Source: Ignavibacteriota bacterium
GTDB taxonomy: Bacteria > Bacteroidota > Ignavibacteria > UBA10030
Length of the DNA: 64,000 nucleotides
Assembly: GCA_963727825.1 (NCBI GenBank)
Contig: CAVSHO010000010.1
Location: 96,001-160,000 of the forward strand
Direction: 5' to 3'
A program made the translations under genes and the position numbers. Shown here piece after piece: positions 5,267 to 14,799 of the stretch. The notes under the pieces are model-generated. The model did not search any database, had not been told where the DNA came from, and saw only the letters and a list, made by a program, of their open reading frames with translations. Within the stretch, counting starts at the first letter, position 1. Every line of letters starts with the position of its first letter.

Positions 5267-6472
5267 TTGTTCCCAACCATTAATGAACAAATGGATGTTA
5301 TCAAGCGCGGTGCTTCGGAAATCATTCCGGAAGAAGACCTCGTCAAAAAGCTTGAGCACTCCATCAAAACAAATAAACCACTCAACATCAAACTTGGCTG
5401 CGACCCAAGCCGTCCTGATTTACATTTAGGTCATTCTGTTGTTCTTAGAAAACTTCGGCAGTTTCAGGATCTCGGTCATATTGCAATTCTCATCATCGGC
5501 GATTTTACTGGAATGATTGGCGATCCTTCGGGAAAGAGCAAGACACGGCCATCGTTGACACTTGAAGAAACACATCGTAACGGTCAATCTTATTTCGAAC
5601 AAGCGGAAAAAATACTTTCTAAACAAAGAGTATCGATGCAATATAATTCTGATTGGTTGAACAAAATGAGCTTTGCGGATGTTATTCGACTCGCCAGCAA
5701 GTACACAGTAGCTCGGATGTTGGAGCGGGATGATTTTACAGTTCGCTACAAAGCAGGCGAGCCAATCAGCGTACACGAATTTCTCTATCCCCTGGCACAA
5801 GCTATGGATTCGGTTGCTATCCATTCAGATGTCGAGCTTGGAGGAACAGATCAAAAATTCAATCTTTTAGTCGGAAGGGATATTCAGCGGGAATATAGTC
5901 AGGAACCGCAGGTTATTTTGACTATGCCGATCCTTGTTGGTACTGACGGTGTCGAGAAAATGAGCAAATCGTTAGATAACTATATTGGCATAAGCGATTC
6001 ACCGAAGGAAATATTTGGAAAAACGCTTAGCATTCCTGACAAATTGATTTACCAGTATTTTGAATTGGTCACAGATGTACCGAAGTTGGAATTAGCCGGA
6101 ATCAAATCCTCTTTAGAGGATATAAAAAATAATCCGCGGGATATAAAACGGCAACTTGCACGAACGCTTGTGCGGATGTATCATTCTCAGATTTCAGCGG
6201 ATGATGCTGAAAAAGAATTTGACAAGATATTTATTCAAAAAAGTATTCCGGACAATATTGAAGAATTCAAACTGATTAAATCAATCAATATTATTGCTTT
6301 GATGACTGAGGCAAAACTTGCTGTTTCAAAAGGCGAAGCGCGGCGGCTCGTCGATCAAGGCGGTGTCAGCATCGATGATGAGCGAGTTACCGATCCCAAC
6401 ATGCTCGTGCCGGATAAGGACGAGTTTATACTCAAAGTCGGGAAGCGGCGTTTTCTAAAAGTTAAACGTTAA
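5267..6472 (+). CDS. tyrS: tyrosine--tRNA ligase
   Basis: HLGH and KMSKS class I motifs, GGTDQKFN, C-terminal S4-like domain; TTG start. Confidence 0.96.
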
Positions 6473-6500
6473 TTATTCACTATTTGGCGGAGAAAATAAA

Positions 6501-7046
6501 TTGTTCACCCCCACTAAAATATTTTTCACAAAAGGCGTTGGACGCCATAGAGATTACCTGCAATCTTTTGAACTTGCCTTACGCGACGCAGGAATTGAAA
6601 TCTGTAATCTCGTTTCTGTTTCCAGCATATATCCGCCAGGCTGCAAACGTATTCCGAAGGATGAAGGCATCAAGCAATTAAGCTCAGGTCAAATTACTTT
6701 TTGTGTGATGGCACGTAATGCTACAAACGAACCCAATCGTCTCATAGCCGCGTCGATCGGAGTTGCACAGCCTGCCGACGATTCTGTTTATGGATATCTT
6801 TCAGAGCACCATCCTTTTGGCGAGACCGATGAGCGTGCCGGTGAGTATGCAGAAGACCTTGCAGCTTCCATGCTTGCTACAACACTTGGAGTGCAGTTTG
6901 ATCCGAATACTGAATGGGATGAGCGGGAAAAAATATTCAAAATGTCCGGCAAGATTGTCCGCACATTCAACGTAACTCAATCTGCCGAAGGCGATAAGAA
7001 TGGTTTATGGACGTCGGTAGTTGCGGCTGCGATGTTACTACCGTAG
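6501..7046 (+). CDS. pdaD: pyruvoyl-dependent arginine decarboxylase
   Basis: [23 protein letters not shown] (Ser-Ser self-cleavage site) and GYLSEHH. Confidence 0.88.
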
Positions 7047-7198
7047 CATCCGTTTGCTAATTAAATCCCACATTTGCACTCGTACCATGTTATCATCGCT
7101 TGCAGTGCCATCTTAGACATCCCGCTACATTAGAATTAATATTGAAAGCGGGTTAGAATAGCCGCAAGCTAGGCAGTAAAAGGTTTATATAGTTGCTA

Positions 7199-7555
7199 TT
7201 ATTTTGCCAATAGCCAATGTATAGCAGCCGATTTGTCAGGGAAGACCTTAAGCAATGCACCGCGATTTATTGCAGTATTTTCGAAAAATTTATTCTTAAA
7301 CACTTTTTGATATACAATCGCTATTTTGACATTGCGAAGAACAGATGCAATATATTCCCCAAGGTCAAAGCGATCCATCTCCGGTGGAGGCCCTGAAACT
7401 AGAGACAAATCAGCTAAAACACGACTACATCTGTAATTCTTTATTTCAGCAGGGACTGTGTCGATGAAAGCCTTCAATTCATCTGTAATCCACTTTCCAG
7501 TAACCGTGCAAGCCAGATAGTCAGATTCCGATTGGAAATCGATCGATAAGTTCAT
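7199..7555 (-). CDS. small hypothetical protein, STAS/SpoIIAA-like
   Basis: ATG at 7555 preceded by AAAGGAG; pattern VLADLS...KIAIV...FFENTAINRG..LKVF.D...AIHWL is typical of SpoIIAA-like small proteins. Confidence 0.6.
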   Translation of the reverse strand: MNLSIDFQSESDYLACTVTGKWITDELKAFIDTVPAEIKNYRCSRVLADLSLVSGPPPEMDRFDLGEYIASVLRNVKIAIVYQKVFKNKFFENTAINRGALLKVFPDKSAAIHWLLAK

Positions 7556-7572
7556 TACTAGCTCCTTTCGCT

Positions 7573-7639
7573 GCCTAACGGATAGCATTTAAGTCCCGAT
7601 TCGGCAAATTAATATTTCCCAATCAAATCGTTGTTAGCC
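7573..7639 (-). mobile_element. degenerate attC-like site (GGCTAAC...GTTAGGC) in front of the small gene
   Basis: The minus strand reads GGCTAAC, ~53 nt, GTTAGGC, then RBS and ATG. Internal L-box pairing is poor. Confidence 0.35.
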
Positions 7640-7656
7640 AGAAGCCTGAAATTGTA

Positions 7657-7680
7657 ATCCCGTCTTGCGGGATTTTTATT
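7657..7680. terminator. hairpin, probable intrinsic terminator
   Basis: aatcccg-tcttg-cgggatt followed by tttatt, downstream of cysE. Confidence 0.5.
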
Positions 7681-7690
7681 TCGTTTTTAT

Positions 7691-7768
7691 TTATGTCATG
7701 AATTCTATTTCTAAAGATGTGTTTCCTATTGTTTTCAGAACAGATTTCGTTCTTATAATTATTTTCAT
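7691..7768 (-). pseudogene. 25-codon remnant resembling the N-terminus of cysteine synthase
   Basis: MKIIIRTKSVLKTIGNTSLEIEFMT* starts 7 nt after the cysE stop; SVLKTIGNTSL resembles the CysK/CysM start motif S(I/V)LxxIGNTPL. Confidence 0.55.
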
Positions 7769-7775
7769 TTTTTGG

Positions 7776-8627
7776 TCAAATACTGAAATCGATTGGAGCA
7801 CCAGTCAATTCTTTCGGACGTACCGTGACTTTGCTTTCTTGATAGACAGATGAAAAAGGTGGTACGCTCGCTGTAAGCCAAACATTGCCTCCGATTACGC
7901 TATGACGGCCAACAACAGTCTCCCCGCCGAGAATAATTGCTTGTGCATAAATCACCACATTATCTTCAATGGTTGGATGGCGTTTTGATTTAGCAAACTT
8001 TTTGTCCACGCTCAGCGCCCCAAGTGTCACGCCTTGATACATTTTAACGTTATCACCAATGATTGAAGATTCACCAATTACAATACCTGTTCCATGATCA
8101 ATTGCAAATGACGAACCAATTTGCGCACCCGGATGAATATCAATTCCGGTCATTTGATGAGCATATTCTGTGATCAAGCGCGGGAATATCGGAACATGCA
8201 TTAAATAAAATTCATGCGCTAAGCGATAATACGCTATAGCTGTGAATCCTGGATATGCAAGTATGACTTCATCAATACTCTCTGCGGCCGGATCACCACT
8301 AGTGATTGCTTCAGCATCAAGCCAGAGTTTGTCGTGAATATTTGGAAGCGCAAGCATAAACTGCGTCACTATCGAATCCAAATTTAAAGGCATACCTTTC
8401 AATATTGGAATAAGCAAGCGTTTTAAATCACGTTCTAACAATACAAGGCGCGATTCAATTTCCTCCGTTGTATAGAATCCTTCCTTGCAAAAGTGTGGAA
8501 ATAAAACGGCAAGCATATTATCAATAAATTCTTGAGTCCCCTTTTTCATCTGGAATCCTAAAGAATGATCGTCGCGCCGTTCTTTCAAGGTTTTTGCGAA
8601 CTCGTTATATTTCATTTCGGTATTCAT
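7776..8627 (-). CDS. cysE: serine O-acetyltransferase (EpsC/CysE type)
   Basis: GDPAA..IDEVILAYPG, GIDIHPGA, IDHGTGIVIGE, YQGVTLG and KRHPTI motifs. Confidence 0.93.
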   Translation of the reverse strand: MNTEMKYNEFAKTLKERRDDHSLGFQMKKGTQEFIDNMLAVLFPHFCKEGFYTTEEIESRLVLLERDLKRLLIPILKGMPLNLDSIVTQFMLALPNIHDKLWLDAEAITSGDPAAESIDEVILAYPGFTAIAYYRLAHEFYLMHVPIFPRLITEYAHQMTGIDIHPGAQIGSSFAIDHGTGIVIGESSIIGDNVKMYQGVTLGALSVDKKFAKSKRHPTIEDNVVIYAQAIILGGETVVGRHSVIGGNVWLTASVPPFSSVYQESKVTVRPKELTGAPIDFSI

Positions 8628-8693
8628 TTCTTATCCTTTTCAAATTAAATAATGTAATAGTAATAATGCATTATATTTCAAATAGGTTCCAAT

Positions 8694-8732
8694 AAAAAAG
8701 CTCATCCTGATTAATCTGGACGAGCTTTTTTT
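8694..8732 (-). terminator. intrinsic terminator in the cysE 5' leader (attenuator)
   Basis: Minus-strand AAAAAAAGCUCGUCCAGA-UUAA-UCAGGAUGAGC-UUUUUU, ~65 nt upstream of the cysE ATG. Confidence 0.8.
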
Positions 8733-8755
8733 CATAAAAACAAAATTATAAATAT

Positions 8756-8869
8756 TCACAGCGTTTGTTTGTAATTGGCTCGTCCATTCATAGAAAAGCG
8801 ACAACAATTACACTGAAGCAGTTTTTTAACTTCATTTCCTTCAATATATTGCGAATTAATAATCTTCAT
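8756..8869 (-). CDS. putative Cys-rich leader peptide (37 aa)
   Basis: MKIINSQYIEGNEVKKLLQCNCCRFSMNGRANYKQTL*; three TGT codons within four codons (8801-8812), just upstream of the leader terminator. Confidence 0.6.
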   Translation of the reverse strand: MKIINSQYIEGNEVKKLLQCNCCRFSMNGRANYKQTL

Positions 8870-8885
8870 ATCGAAATCTACTAGA

Positions 8886-9052
8886 AGCTATCTTAAAAAT
8901 ACTATTCGCTGTCAGACTAAGCTTGCCTGCCCACTGAAAAAATTCTTTTGCAGGCGGATCGAAGTCTGATCTGTGGCATATTCCGTCACCCTTCGTGCTT
9001 CGACTTTGCTCAACATGACTCAGGGTGACTTAGAATCATTTTTGGGATGGTT
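8886..9052. repeat. composite REP-like palindromic element
   Basis: gtcagact...agtctga (8911-8969) and gtcaccct...cagggtgac (8985-9029), each with an inner hairpin; imperfect outer inverted repeats. Confidence 0.55.
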
Positions 9053-9142
9053 TATAGATTTAATATGTATAAAGAAATAATTCAATTCAAGGGCTCGATG
9101 TATTTTTTGCACAATACAACGTTTGTTCTATTGCTTTCTTGG

Positions 9143-10747
9143 TTAGCTTCTCTTTTGATTCCACCAATGCTCCATTACATCTGTAATATCCGTCTTCTTA
9201 CCAGATTGTTTCCACTTATCGAAGAATTTAACATCCATGCTGTGCGGGGTTGGTTTTGGAAAATCAATTTGTACACGTTGCGGGATTGGAATAGCATCTC
9301 CAATAATAATTGCCTCACCCTGACGTAAAAGTGGAACGACACTATCCAAGCCACTAAATGAATCAGGTACAAGGCGGCGGATATATGCCTGATCTGTTGG
9401 GTTGAGAAGTCGTAGGATTATAAAATTGTTGCATTGCGAAAGAATCGTTTCTGATATATCCGACGGCCGTTGACTGACAATCATACAGCTAACGCCATAT
9501 TTTCTTCCTTCTTTTGCTATTCGCTCAACCGTGCGTCGCGCTGCTTTCGATCCATCTGTTGAGGTCGAGAGATAATTGTGTGCTTCTTCAAAAACAAGCA
9601 GTATCGGTAAATCATTTCGTTGAGGATTCCAAAAGTTAAAATCGAAAGTCGCTCGCGCTATGAGAGCTGAAATTGTCTTTACAACGTCGGAAGGCACGCC
9701 GCTCATATCCCAAATCGTGATCCTCGCCTTGCTGGCAAGTCCAAACAATGTCATAAATAACGGAACTACAGATTCTGTCTCTACGCAAATATTGGGTTGA
9801 AACATAAATGCATAACGAGGGTCGTTCATTTTATTATCGAGGCGTATCAATAAACGAGAAAATTTGCCGAAATATGTTCCTTCTTTCATTCCGACTGGAC
9901 TTGTAATCTTTTCAGTATCCATAAAATGCAGCTTCGAACGAATTTCTTTTAAATCGTAAGCTACCGGTGAATCGATCGTAATGACATCCGCAAGTGTTGG
10001 ATTCTTCGCTTTCTTCGCAGCGTAAATAAGATCCTGCAAAACAGCTCCTTGGATCGATGCATTTTCATCTGACGGTTCAACAAACATTTCTAACATCTCT
10101 TCAGCGTTCATCAGCCAGAATGGAAGTTCCAGCGATGCGATCTCACAATACTGTCCAGTTTCGGGAAATGCTTGTCGATATTCATTGTGAAGATCGAGTA
10201 AAACAATATGCGTATCCGCGAATTGAGCAACTTTTTGGAGAATGGAAGCGACAGAATATGACTTGCCGGCACCACTTGAGCCAAGAACTGCAAGATGTTT
10301 TCCAAAAAATTTATTCGGGTCCAAGTATGCACGCTCATTTTCGAATAGCGAAAGCTGCCCGACAGAGAAATTGTATTGCTGATATGCGGCAAATATTGAT
10401 TTAATGTCTTTATCTTCCAATAAATAGACGATCATATCAACCGTAGGCATAACCGAGACGCCAGTCTCATATTTTCCTTTCCGAATTGTCCCTACTAGTG
10501 TTACTGTCATCAAATATCGAATAAAACTTACTCCATCTTCACGGGTCTCTTCTTTCTTGATACCTGAAACCATGCCGATAATATAAATGGCACCAATAGG
10601 AATTAGCACATAGGAGCCGATCTGGCCGATATAATAAATCCTTTCACCGATCTTCTTGGTCATATTCGTAATTTCTCTGTCAAGAAGAACAACGATTGTT
10701 GCATTGACAACTTCTTTCACAATCCCTAGCTGTTTTTGTTCCCACAT
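9143..10747 (-). CDS. HerA/FtsK-superfamily ATPase (DUF87 type) with N-terminal HAS-barrel-like domain
   Basis: Walker A GSSGAGKS, LLDLHNEY, Walker B LLVFEEAH, IAKEGRKYG and SQRPS motifs. Confidence 0.88.
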   Translation of the reverse strand: MWEQKQLGIVKEVVNATIVVLLDREITNMTKKIGERIYYIGQIGSYVLIPIGAIYIIGMVSGIKKEETREDGVSFIRYLMTVTLVGTIRKGKYETGVSVMPTVDMIVYLLEDKDIKSIFAAYQQYNFSVGQLSLFENERAYLDPNKFFGKHLAVLGSSGAGKSYSVASILQKVAQFADTHIVLLDLHNEYRQAFPETGQYCEIASLELPFWLMNAEEMLEMFVEPSDENASIQGAVLQDLIYAAKKAKNPTLADVITIDSPVAYDLKEIRSKLHFMDTEKITSPVGMKEGTYFGKFSRLLIRLDNKMNDPRYAFMFQPNICVETESVVPLFMTLFGLASKARITIWDMSGVPSDVVKTISALIARATFDFNFWNPQRNDLPILLVFEEAHNYLSTSTDGSKAARRTVERIAKEGRKYGVSCMIVSQRPSDISETILSQCNNFIILRLLNPTDQAYIRRLVPDSFSGLDSVVPLLRQGEAIIIGDAIPIPQRVQIDFPKPTPHSMDVKFFDKWKQSGKKTDITDVMEHWWNQKRS

Positions 10748-10787
10748 AGTCTTTCCCGGTTATTTAGACGTTAAAGAAGATGTCCTC

Positions 10788-11912
10788 TTAGTTTTCACCA
10801 GGAGGATTCACTGGCAGTGTGAAACGAAATACTGTCAATTTTTTAGGCTCACTTTCCGCCGTAATACTGCCGCCATGTGCTTCAACAATTAGTTTACAGA
10901 TTGCAAGTCCTAACCCGGTTCCTTTTGCCTGCACAATTTCTGAAGCAATTCCTTGTTTGTAACGTTCGAAAATCGTTGGTAATTCTTCCGGTAGGATTCC
11001 TATGCCGGTGTTACTAATAGCCGTCCATACACATTCACCTGCATTAGTGCTCTCATGCATTTTTCCTATTACAATCTGAACAGTTCCGTTTGATGAAGTG
11101 AATTTTAGCGCATTGCTGAGAATATTAGCAAATACTTGCGATATTTTATTTGCATCAGCAGAAATAAGTGGCAGATTGTCTTCAAGCACGAGCTTGATGT
11201 GAATACTCTTCTGTTTGAATTGAGGATTCATCTGTTTCATTATTCTATCTGCTATTTTGCCAATGCTAACAAGGTCGCGGCTCAAATTCATCTTACCGGC
11301 CTCAAACTTTGAAAGATCGAGCATATCATTAATCAAATGGAGTAATCGTTTGGTAGCTTCTTCCGCGGATGTGAGCAATTCCCGATGTACTTCTTGTATC
11401 GGTTCGCCCCTGAGCAATGGTTCTTCTAATAACTCAAGTATACTGCTGACACCACCTATTGGACTCCGCATATCGTGTATGAGCATTGCCATAAAGTCTG
11501 CTTTTGTTCGCTCAAGTTCAATTTCCATTTTCTTGAGTCGAACGAGTGAACGCGCGCGCACTAATAATTCGTCTGTGTCAATAGGCTTGGTTAAATACTC
11601 TTCTGCCCCAAGTAAAAGACCTTGTTCAATACTTAAAGCGTCTTTTCTTTTCGCCGTGAGAAAGATTACGGGAATATCAGCACTTTTTTTTGATGCACGC
11701 AGATGTTTCAGCGTCTCAAACCCATCCATCTCTGGCATTTGAATATCTAAAAGAATGACATCAGGATGATGCTGTGCTGCAAGTTGCAGACATTCTTTGC
11801 CGCTGCTCGCACGCAGCATTCGAACCGGTTTCCGCTTGAGAGCAAATTCGAGCAAATCAAGGTTATCCTCTGTGTCATCCACAACGAGAATAGTAGGTTC
11901 AATAGTTTCCAT
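10788..11912 (-). CDS. hybrid response regulator-histidine kinase (REC-HisKA-HATPase)
   Basis: LVVDD/LLDIQMP receiver, HDMRSP H-box, NALKFT N-box, GTGLGL G2-box. Confidence 0.93.
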   Translation of the reverse strand: METIEPTILVVDDTEDNLDLLEFALKRKPVRMLRASSGKECLQLAAQHHPDVILLDIQMPEMDGFETLKHLRASKKSADIPVIFLTAKRKDALSIEQGLLLGAEEYLTKPIDTDELLVRARSLVRLKKMEIELERTKADFMAMLIHDMRSPIGGVSSILELLEEPLLRGEPIQEVHRELLTSAEEATKRLLHLINDMLDLSKFEAGKMNLSRDLVSIGKIADRIMKQMNPQFKQKSIHIKLVLEDNLPLISADANKISQVFANILSNALKFTSSNGTVQIVIGKMHESTNAGECVWTAISNTGIGILPEELPTIFERYKQGIASEIVQAKGTGLGLAICKLIVEAHGGSITAESEPKKLTVFRFTLPVNPPGEN

Positions 11913-11931
11913 AGAATATTCCGCTCTTTCT

Positions 11932-14799
11932 TTATCTATGTGATTGAGAAATAATTTTTTTAATCGTACTCGAAATAAGTTCCTTCGAGAAGTGTCCTTT
12001 ATCTATAAAATCTTGAATGTTTCTATTCAAATTTCGGCGTTGATCGATTGTAATATCGGCTCCTGATAGAATCACAATCGGAAGATTGTGCCATCGTTCT
12101 TGAGACCGCAACTGTTCAACAACTGCAAATCCATCGATACCTGGCATTATAAGATCGAGAATTATTAATGATGGATTAATGGTTTCAATATTCTTCAGTG
12201 AATCTTCACCGCTATACAAAGCTACAGCTTTATATCCTTCAACTTCAAGTAAAATCTTTAACGAATCGGCAAAATCTTGGTTATCATCGACGATCATAAT
12301 TGGCTGTTTGCTGGAATGGCAAGCGCGATCTACAATACTTAATATTTCCTTTGGTTCAGAAGGTTTTGTAACTACTTCCAGTGCACCAAGTGAAAGCGCC
12401 AGTGGACGATTTTCGACCACTGAATGAATGATAACAGGAATATCGCTCGTTTCTGGATTGCTTTTTAATTCCCGCAATACTTGCCAGCCATCCTTCTCCG
12501 GCATCATAATATCCAAGGTAATAACTGCGGGATGGAGTTCCTGTGCCAATCGAATGCCTTCATCTCCAGAATTAACACCTCTGACAGAATATCCTTCCGG
12601 AATCAAATAGCGACGGAGCAAATCAATAACTTCTGGATCATCATCTATACAGAGGACAAGAACGCCGGTTGATGATGCAGGCGATTTTTCTGATACAGAT
12701 TTTGAAGTTAGTTCAACAACAGCACTTTTTATAGCCGGCGTTTCGTCAATTGGTTTTGGTAACCTTTCATCAGGAATCACCGGAGGAATCACCAGAGTGA
12801 AAGTAGAACCCTTTCCGAATTCACTACGCACTGTCAAGTTTCCACCAAGAAGGAGAGCATATTTCTTAGCAATCGCGAGACCCAACCCAGTGCCTTTGTA
12901 CTTTCTAGCATTACTCGAATCTATCTGCTGAAACTCCTCAAACACTCGGTCAAGATTCTGTGCTTCAATACCAATACCGTCATCTTTGACAGAAATTGAA
13001 ATCATACTATTATGTTTTTTAGCAGTAACTGTAATAGCCCCATGCTCTGTGAACTTCGCAGCATTACTCAAGAGGTTCAAGAGGATTTGCTTAACCTTGA
13101 GTGTATCAGTATTTAACATTGGCAAATCCGGTTCAATTTCTTGCAAAAGCTTTACGTCTTTCCCCATCAACATAGGTTCAACGGTCACCATTGCATTTGA
13201 GACGATATTCGCAACTTCATCTGAACTCATATTGATTGGCGTTCTGCCTGCTTCAATTTTTGAGAAATCAAGAATATCGTTAATGAGCTCAAGCAAGTGC
13301 TTACCGTTCTTTAAAACTTTTTCTAATGCCTTTGCTTGATCGGCAGTAAGTGGATCACCCTGTTGTGCCAGTAAAACTGATGTAAAGCCGATAATGGAAT
13401 TCAGAGGAGTTCGTAATTCATGAGACATGTTCGAAAGGAAGTCAGACTTTACCCGATACGCTTTCTGTAATTCCGCATTTTTGCTATTTAGTTCATTATT
13501 CTTTGTTGCAATTTCGCTTGAAAGTTTCTTTGTTGATTCTAGATTCATAGCATTGGTAATTGCGACACCGATTTGCGGAGCGGAATTATCCATAAGCTCT
13601 CGCCTTTGTACATCAAAGGATTTCATTGATCCCAATACAATCACACCAATAAGATTTTCTTGGAATAAAACAGGTACCGCCAGAATGTATGCAGGGACAA
13701 CATTCACGAGACCCGTATCAATTATAAAATCCTTAGCGGCAACGAAATCGCTGATTTCAATAGTTTGCTTCATCGCGGCACACTGGCCTGGGATTCCTTC
13801 CCCCATTTTGTACTCTATTCTATTATTGACGTTTTGAAGGGCGTATCCACTGACTAACCTTAATATCTTTGAATCAGTATCAAGAAGATACAGTGCACCA
13901 ATAGAAGCACCAGTGTGCAAACACAATATTTGCAAACTGGCTTGTTCTAAGGTTGTTAAAGATTCATGCTCGTTCAACGCTGTTAATATTTCTGAATATG
14001 CTGTTAAACGGTTGTAATTATTTTGAAGCATTTTGGACATTTGGTTGAAATCATTCGCCAAATCTCCAAACTCATCTCGTTGGCGCAGCATAATAGGCTC
14101 ATAAATACCTTTCATAATATTCTGCGTACCACCGCGTAATCGTTCTACTGGTTTTGTAATAGATCGTGTCAAGATAAAACCGAGAGCGATAGCAAAAATT
14201 GCAATTAGCACATTCACCAAAACAACAAACGATGCTATATTCTTTGACAAGCCAATAGAGTACTCAATATTCTTCGGCACTGATGTCAATCGTTGTTGAT
14301 ATAATGTACGTATCAGCGTTTGAGCTGTTTCAAGATACCGATTCAACGATTGTTGACGACCTAAGGAACTAATCTCCTTTCCAAGTTCATCACTCTTCAG
14401 ACCAGAAGAAGCAAGTAATATCTTTTTTTCTCCAATATTTGTAACCCAAGCATAGAAGGAAGTTCGTATTTGTTTCAATGTTTGCAGATTGATCGAATCA
14501 ACATAGCTTTTCTGAAGGGCAACAATTTCATTATCAAATTCCTTTAGACACTCATCGTATGCAGTTCTTTTCTCTGGAAGACCCGTGTACATATATCCAT
14601 CGGCAGTGGATTGGATATCGACGATCAAATCCCTCATACGATCCAAGTTGGATGTCGTTGTTATATCTACGGATGCTTGAGAATATTTTTCCTGAATTTG
14701 CAACAAAAAGTAGCGAGTAACATATGTAGTAGCGGAAAGAATAATTAGGAGAAGAGCGAAATAGAAGGTCACTTTCCAAAACAATTTAGAAGAAAACAT
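11932..14799 (-). CDS. membrane hybrid sensor kinase (periplasmic sensor-HAMP-GAF-HisKA-HATPase-REC-REC)
   Basis: Two TM segments, HAMP (DEFGDLANDFN), GAF (GEGIPGQCA), SHELRTPL, NAAKFT, two receiver domains. Confidence 0.93.
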   Translation of the reverse strand: MFSSKLFWKVTFYFALLLIILSATTYVTRYFLLQIQEKYSQASVDITTTSNLDRMRDLIVDIQSTADGYMYTGLPEKRTAYDECLKEFDNEIVALQKSYVDSINLQTLKQIRTSFYAWVTNIGEKKILLASSGLKSDELGKEISSLGRQQSLNRYLETAQTLIRTLYQQRLTSVPKNIEYSIGLSKNIASFVVLVNVLIAIFAIALGFILTRSITKPVERLRGGTQNIMKGIYEPIMLRQRDEFGDLANDFNQMSKMLQNNYNRLTAYSEILTALNEHESLTTLEQASLQILCLHTGASIGALYLLDTDSKILRLVSGYALQNVNNRIEYKMGEGIPGQCAAMKQTIEISDFVAAKDFIIDTGLVNVVPAYILAVPVLFQENLIGVIVLGSMKSFDVQRRELMDNSAPQIGVAITNAMNLESTKKLSSEIATKNNELNSKNAELQKAYRVKSDFLSNMSHELRTPLNSIIGFTSVLLAQQGDPLTADQAKALEKVLKNGKHLLELINDILDFSKIEAGRTPINMSSDEVANIVSNAMVTVEPMLMGKDVKLLQEIEPDLPMLNTDTLKVKQILLNLLSNAAKFTEHGAITVTAKKHNSMISISVKDDGIGIEAQNLDRVFEEFQQIDSSNARKYKGTGLGLAIAKKYALLLGGNLTVRSEFGKGSTFTLVIPPVIPDERLPKPIDETPAIKSAVVELTSKSVSEKSPASSTGVLVLCIDDDPEVIDLLRRYLIPEGYSVRGVNSGDEGIRLAQELHPAVITLDIMMPEKDGWQVLRELKSNPETSDIPVIIHSVVENRPLALSLGALEVVTKPSEPKEILSIVDRACHSSKQPIMIVDDNQDFADSLKILLEVEGYKAVALYSGEDSLKNIETINPSLIILDLIMPGIDGFAVVEQLRSQERWHNLPIVILSGADITIDQRRNLNRNIQDFIDKGHFSKELISSTIKKIISQSHR

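Follow-up and report, generated by a model that had tools for sequence, protein, structure and literature searches.

A predicted cysteine-codon transcription attenuator upstream of cysE in an Ignavibacteriota bacterium

How might a member of the Ignavibacteria match serine acetyltransferase production to its supply of cysteine? The question is raised by the window, the whole 64,000-nucleotide stretch of contig CAVSHO010000010.1 analyzed here. The cysE gene in this window is preceded by a short upstream open reading frame (uORF), Cys codons within it and three overlapping helices, with conserved spacing and linkage to cysteine and sulfur genes. Judging from sequence comparison and folding, we think it likely that this leader is a ribosome-mediated transcription attenuator that senses charged tRNA-Cys and controls cysE (cysE-cysK in most relatives). 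From the same features we infer transcription from about position 9055, translation of the uORF, ribosome stalling, termination and a response to cysteine. The elements of the leader and the gene behind it are, in the direction of transcription:

8756..8869, minus strand: leader uORF of 37 aa, MKIINSQYIEGNEVKKLLQCNCCRFSMNGRANYKQTL, an ATG ORF with an in-frame counterpart in the genus leaders
8801..8812, minus strand: control codons Cys-Asn-Cys-Cys (TGT AAT TGT TGT), the only conserved peptide columns
8771..8811, minus strand: predicted protector (1:2) helix between the Cys codons and the antiterminator strand, from the minimum free energy fold of 8690-8830 and a consensus fold of 7 leaders
8778..8786, minus strand: antiterminator 5' strand UGGACGAGC (region 2), within the uORF and the exact complement of region 3
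8717..8725, minus strand: terminator 5' arm and antiterminator 3' strand GCUCGUCCA (region 3), from folding and genus comparison
8694..8731, minus strand: intrinsic terminator hairpin with a U6 tail (3:4), conserved in the genus
7776..8627, minus strand: cysE, serine O-acetyltransferase, from PDB and NCBIfam matches

The product of cysE is 283 aa long and matches serine O-acetyltransferases in the PDB (E 2e-63); among NCBIfam profiles it reaches the cut-off of NF041874 and falls below that of TIGR01172. The other 15 genus genomes all carry this gene. Within the fetched flank, cysK follows it in 11 of the 16 genus loci, and in G006 it follows at 385 nt. In the genome studied here cysK is separated from cysE, and a metY-like gene upstream of cysK has been lost. 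The place that cysK occupies in relatives is taken by a 129-aa ORF (7199-7588) with no NCBIfam match. Upstream of the leader, a gene for a HerA-like ATPase (9143-10747 in the window) is found throughout the genus. One relative, G008 (L021/L029), has an intact leader and a cysE match broken by a stop or frameshift.

A preliminary description of this DNA had proposed a minus-strand uORF of 37 aa with Cys-Asn-Cys-Cys at 8801-8812, a U-tailed terminator at 8694-8732, and a 9-nt segment complementary to the 5' arm of that terminator. All three are borne out. The uORF runs from 8869 to 8756, and its control residues are Cys20-Asn-Cys22-Cys23, with TGT at each of the three Cys positions. No Shine-Dalgarno-like run was found before the ATG, and an NCBIfam profile search with the peptide gave no family match. 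The terminator hairpin was located at 8731-8694 with a folding energy of -19.5 kcal/mol (z -5.77; 0/200 shuffles as good), and the uORF stop lies 33 nt from its core. Segment UGGACGAGC (8786-8778), whose first base is 14 nt past the last Cys codon, is exactly complementary to GCUCGUCCA (8725-8717); a 9-nt complement to the terminator arm arose in 3/5000 dinucleotide shuffles of the leader. The protector helix is a fold prediction made without a shuffle control. Folding both conformers, as had been suggested, gave -35.8 kcal/mol for the full leader with the terminator and -25.7 kcal/mol with the antiterminator enforced, a difference of 10 kcal/mol in favour of the terminator fold.

A standard promoter and terminator scan returned nothing on the minus strand and missed the hairpin because of its loop and bulge rules; custom scans found both elements. 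The Rfam scan of the cysE leader produced no match at gathering level, the nearest being a weak Thr_leader match over 8691-8779 (23.9 bits, E 0.34; gathering 55). A T-box was considered and rejected, as RF00230 had no match in the genome or in 6000-12000 of the window. No Rrf2-type palindrome lay near cysE, and the window held 4 weak matches to it vs 14 expected.

Upstream of the uORF we located a candidate promoter and, between the two, an inserted repeat:

9085..9090, minus strand: predicted -35 hexamer TTGAAT, from a motif scan; 8/12 consensus matches, below the tool cut-off
9062..9067, minus strand: predicted -10 hexamer CATATT, from a motif scan; its place with respect to the herA-like stop is the same in relatives
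8896..9045, minus strand: multicopy palindromic (REP/MITE-like) repeat of ~150 nt, from blastn

In scans of the genus leaders a sigma70-like motif (TTG-RAW, 17 nt, YATATT) occurred upstream of the uORF in 12 of 16, and from this motif the transcript of the window leader would start near 9055. The preliminary description had considered a cysE transcript that starts downstream of the terminator; the predicted promoter lies upstream of both the uORF and the terminator. Measured from the promoter motif only, the predicted start is ~185 nt from the uORF ATG here vs about 40-70 nt in most relatives, and the promoter-to-cysE distance is 463 nt here vs 263-346 nt in relatives. The repeat is missing from the cysE leaders of the 15 relatives. 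A blastn search with it gave 14 pieces, its own included, spread over 6 contigs of the genome and corresponding to about 8 further copies. It folds at -40.7 kcal/mol and has no U tract, and an ORF within it stops 43 nt before the leader uORF.

The preliminary description had suggested aligning related cysE upstream regions in search of conserved Cys codons and covarying pairs. Within the genus the Cys cluster, the uORF frame, the terminator and the antiterminator complementarity are all conserved. When 15 of the 16 genus leaders (L017 left out) were aligned on their last Cys, the last three aligned positions were Cys in 14/15, 13/15 and 15/15 leaders, and every other column reached at most 8/15. 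Because Cys residues form the only conserved columns of the uORF, the codons appear to matter rather than the peptide. A strict cluster, defined as three or more Cys within a stretch of six codons and a CC pair among them, is present in 14/16 leaders. The other two carry degenerate clusters, Cys-Tyr-Cys after a deletion in G006 and Trp-Cys-Cys in G007, and the number of Cys codons per uORF ranges from 2 to 5 across the genus. Among the control codons of these kin, which are not independent of one another, TGT accounts for 43/58, with a genome-wide TGT share of 49.7% and a single tRNA-Cys(GCA); the preference for UGU may reflect wobble reading or RNA pairing.

All 16 genus leaders retain the terminator, which has 99.2% of 128 cells paired and falls into long-loop and short-loop subtypes. 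The five pairs of the antiterminator core are kept in 13, 16, 16, 16 and 15 of the 16 leaders, their changes being mostly to G-U, and in the short-terminator subtype the antiterminator comprises only 5 bp. The expectation of covarying pairs thus held for the terminator, in which two pairs show two-sided changes (0/500 shuffles as high), but not for the antiterminator within the genus, where two-sided covariation was not significant (26/500 and 143/500 shuffles reach the observed values).

These elements suggest how the leader could operate. After initiation the uORF would be translated, and when Cys-tRNA is scarce the ribosome would wait on the UGU codons, covering region 1. The stalled ribosome would leave region 2 free to capture the emerging terminator arm, and RNA polymerase would read on into cysE. 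When cysteine is plentiful, the ribosome would cross region 2 and reach the stop just ahead of the terminator core; alternatively, it would leave the uORF and the 1:2 helix would form. The terminator would then fold and transcription would end at about 8694.

We modelled this sequence of events at 24 loci of the class with the ribosome as a barrier, so that only the RNA from its leading edge (A site +13) to the polymerase was folded. The mean probability that the terminator arm is captured was 0.88 with the ribosome at the last Cys codon and 0.29 at the stop, against 0.62 in shuffles. Capture was higher at Cys than at the stop in 23/24 loci, and 13/24 exceeded their own shuffles at p<=0.05; G007 (L017) was reversed and L142 weak. 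For the window leader the modelled probability was 1.00 through the Cys codons vs 0.39 at the stop, dropping below 0.5 four codons after the last Cys, and in most genus leaders predicted antitermination ends 2-4 codons past the last Cys. Another, footprint-only model, which allowed pairing across the ribosome and in which the arm chosen at several loci was badly positioned, gave no switch for the window leader, the antiterminator there being present in every state with P 1.00. Since the antiterminator forms in every state once pairing across the ribosome is allowed, termination in cysteine excess would rely on the barrier or on timing.

Similar leaders were found beyond the genus. A cysE of the same type is present in 63 of the 301 genomes of the class sample. 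In the genus and class sample together, a Cys-cluster uORF lies within 420 nt before cysE in 41 of 80 loci, two of the 41 being inside an upstream gene and probably due to chance. Other residues scored at the same 80 loci gave Trp 0, His 1, Met 2, Asp 2, Glu 6, Tyr 7, Phe 13 and Lys 20. Because kin are not independent, these class counts and the wider locus counts below are descriptive. Leaders of the terminator type occur in the genus (g1), at seven loci of family f17 and at one of f30; in all 24 modelled loci the Cys run is followed by 10-17 codons, and 30-36 nt separate the stop from the terminator core. Family f17 uses a different pairing, GCGAAGG:CCUUCGU, with 49/49 cells paired; 4/7 pairs vary, only to G-U or A-U, and no two-sided covariation of the antiterminator was seen in this family. 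In a second arrangement the uORF has its Cys run at the stop or close to it, 57-134 nt ahead of cysE, and no terminator was found (L018, L019, L022-L024 and L121-L137 are loci of this kind). This terminator-less type accounts for 11/16 loci in f22, 3/3 in f9 and 1/2 in f28 and is also seen in two other genera of f1. Family f13 had a Cys-cluster uORF in 0/11 cysE loci.

In 4/5 genomes that have cysE inside a sulfate-assimilation operon, it is the first gene of the operon that the leader and terminator precede. In f17 loci L153-L156 the terminator-type Cys leader heads what we take, from sequence motifs, to be a sulfite reductase-(rhodanese)-cysH-tauE-cysE-cysK operon. Twelve leaderless cysE loci (L157-L168) showed no convincing Cys leader up to 14 kb upstream, and the same was true of L152. 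Outside the class, 60 of 70 matching loci were fetched, and a Cys uORF was present at 7/60, five of them with a terminator; control residues at these 60 loci gave Tyr 6, Glu 5, Met 3, Asp 2, His 1 and Trp 0, which makes the Cys count alone weak. Each of the five distant terminator loci, from other classes, has its own antiterminator complement, and in the barrier model all five gave higher capture at Cys than at the stop (0.76-1.00 vs 0.08-0.37), three of them significantly. The antiterminator and terminator pairing is therefore retained with other sequences in unrelated lineages, namely family f17 and these five loci. Together with the conserved Cys cluster, frame, terminator and complementarity in the genus and the predicted upstream promoter, this pattern in the sequences supports the cysteine attenuator that the preliminary description had put forward.

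The genome studied here contains further leaders with tandem control codons. One, of a different family, also carries Cys codons and precedes cysK (L169:912-1280; G000:C10, cysK at 241066). It has a near-consensus promoter, a 51-codon uORF with Cys3, ~110 nt of conserved structured RNA and then a U-tailed hairpin. The family is present in 6/16 genus genomes with a Cys tract that varies over 3-7 codons by in-frame 9-nt steps. Relatives carry it at the head of metY-cysK; a deletion of metY in the present genome puts it before cysK. This leader had no Rfam match, the barrier model showed no consistent switching for it, and part of it presumably resembles the P2/kink-turn hairpin of SAM-I. Trp3 leader peptides with U-tailed hairpins precede trpE-like and trpB-like genes (C9:596050-596420 and C9:295076-295380, the latter on the minus strand) and share their geometry with the cysE leader. 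Because these Trp3 leaders with terminators precede trp genes, the organism appears, from its sequence, to use classical attenuation. Three copies of cysS (C4:8855, C5:8854 and C7:194922), two with identical upstream DNA, are probably assembly duplication or contamination (genome contamination 6.55%); the genome-wide uORF scan found no Cys leader of this kind before them.

Several other explanations of the locus were weighed. An ordinary leader terminator preceded by an accidental small ORF is exceedingly improbable. Comparable uORFs (ATG start, at least three Cys in five codons, a CC pair) occur in 14 of 1060 leaders in this genome (1.3%), cysE and cysK both included, and terminator arms often resemble upstream sequence, as the shuffle mean shows; chance of this sort would not, however, account for conservation over genus, family and class relative to amino-acid controls, or for a leader that moves with the operon head. 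The family could also be genuine and this copy a constitutive or degenerate premature terminator that no longer switches, for example owing to the repeat insertion. The structured repeat between promoter and uORF is peculiar to this genome, cysK is apart from cysE, the metY-like gene is lost, and degenerate copies do exist (G006, G007). Yet this copy has kept its uORF, the three Cys codons in it and an antiterminator with 9 perfect bp, and ranks among the best of the genus; the repeat lacks a U tract, and its ORF ends ahead of the uORF; we give this explanation little credence.

A third proposal keeps the uORF and changes the signal: the nascent Cys-rich peptide itself would sense metal, thiol or redox state and arrest the ribosome, in the manner of CutF. 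CxCC and CCCC motifs are able to bind metals. Copper sensing by a nascent leader is described for CutF in the available part of its report (PMC9973294). We nevertheless find peptide sensing very unlikely, given that Cys is the only conserved residue, varies in number from 2 to 5 and is accompanied by no signal peptide; moreover, in most genus leaders the predicted antitermination is over 2-4 codons past the last Cys, when the Cys residues would still be deep in the exit tunnel, and the targets are cysteine-synthesis genes. The remaining alternative accepts cysteine sensing by the uORF and places the output, wholly or additionally, in translational coupling, Rho access or RNA decay. Such outputs probably do serve the terminator-less relatives described above (f9, f22, f28 and two f1 genera). 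The mycobacterial poly-Cys case is translational (bioRxiv 10.1101/834739, as far as its available text goes), and the modelled switch disappears if RNA pairs across the ribosome. At the window locus, on the other hand, 131 nt separate the uORF stop from the cysE start, none of the predicted helices includes the cysE ribosome-binding site, and the terminator and antiterminator, each of them conserved, differ in concert from lineage to lineage. We consider a non-terminator output unlikely here and retain the transcription attenuator as the preferred reading.

For Trp, His, Thr, Leu, Ile/Val and Phe, classical attenuators with a terminator are established. If the present reading is correct, the terminator type described here fills the cysteine gap among classical amino-acid attenuators. 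So far, to judge from the portions of the literature at hand, the cysteine case that has been tested, in mycobacteria, works on translation, and a leader with a terminator has only been predicted, before cysS in Rhodobacterales. The principle of attenuation is textbook knowledge, and there is an earlier prediction of a Cys version in another group; the value of this locus is a clean, testable case on biosynthetic genes. On a broader scale, we lean slightly towards a cysteine regulon in Ignavibacteria-like and other Bacteroidota that uses ribosome-read Cys leaders of at least three architectures: with a terminator, terminator-less, and long and structured (metY-cysK). The terminator type would have been rebuilt with unrelated pairing sequences in several lineages and would be the first directly testable transcription attenuator of cysteine biosynthesis. 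The sulfur regulation of the phylum is poorly described, and the cysE leader is well conserved, simple and short enough for a reporter; it is also a possible genetically encoded cysteine sensor. Orthologous cysE genes have leaders with a terminator and leaders without one, and comparing the two could reveal how a single codon sensor comes to be coupled to different outputs.

In the same phylum, leader attenuators of ilvE, hisG and pheA are reported for Flavobacterium psychrophilum in the available part of PMC9723704, and no cys leader is given there ('cys' 0 matches in supplementary file 8). Term searches for Cys leaders in the accessible text of PMC7366714, PMC4833913, PMC2965389, PMC13714241, PMC8079986 and PMC11109978 also found none. 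The preliminary description knew of no such leader in this group, and indeed the literature outside subscription journals yielded none for Bacteroidota or Ignavibacteria. Its novelty is nonetheless narrowed by the prediction, as summarized in the available text of Brewer et al. 2021 (PMC8632094), of uORFC-8-2, in which tandem Cys codons and a terminator precede cysS in Rhodobacterales. That computational prediction shares with the cysE leader the tandem Cys codons in a uORF, the intrinsic terminator and the proposed stalling-dependent readthrough. By its description, with which the comparison was made, it belongs to Alphaproteobacteria, concerns cysS only and has two Cys codons, mostly UGC. 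The leaders described here, in contrast, belong to Bacteroidota-side lineages, precede cysE, cysK or sulfate operons, and have 2-5 codons, mostly UGU, with an explicit antiterminator; the window leader precedes cysE and does not share the placement before cysS.

Cys-codon runs without terminators provide a second comparison. Actinobacterial cys leader peptides have Cys runs before cys operons and no conserved terminator hairpins (Seliverstov et al. 2005, PMC1262725, in the sections available); their Cys codons lie close to the stop, as in the terminator-less type of f9, f22 and f28, which they resemble. The mycobacterial Ms5788A polycysteine sORF, which is leaderless, was examined experimentally and acts translationally, by SD occlusion and not by transcription termination (Canestrari et al., bioRxiv 10.1101/834739, in its available part). 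The Cys-codon run before cysteine genes is common to both systems, and in mycobacteria it was shown, according to the same text, to gauge charged tRNA-Cys. Unlike those sORFs, the uORF here is led, judging from the promoter motif, and is followed by a terminator, and its Cys tract pairs with region 2 and not with a downstream SD region.

The closest parallels in design are the classical leader-peptide transcription attenuators of trp (E. coli), his (Salmonella), thr, leu, ilv and pheA (surveyed in the available text of bioRxiv 10.1101/834739). The cysE leader has end-product codons, an intrinsic terminator and, under the barrier assumption, a mutually exclusive antiterminator. As in the classical systems, a short uORF with end-product codons, 1:2, 2:3 and 3:4 helices and a terminator precede a biosynthetic gene. 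The cysE leader differs from them in its signal, Cys, in sharing no sequence homology with them, and in its layout, in which the antiterminator strand lies inside the uORF and is separated from the terminator arm by a loop of 50-60 nt.
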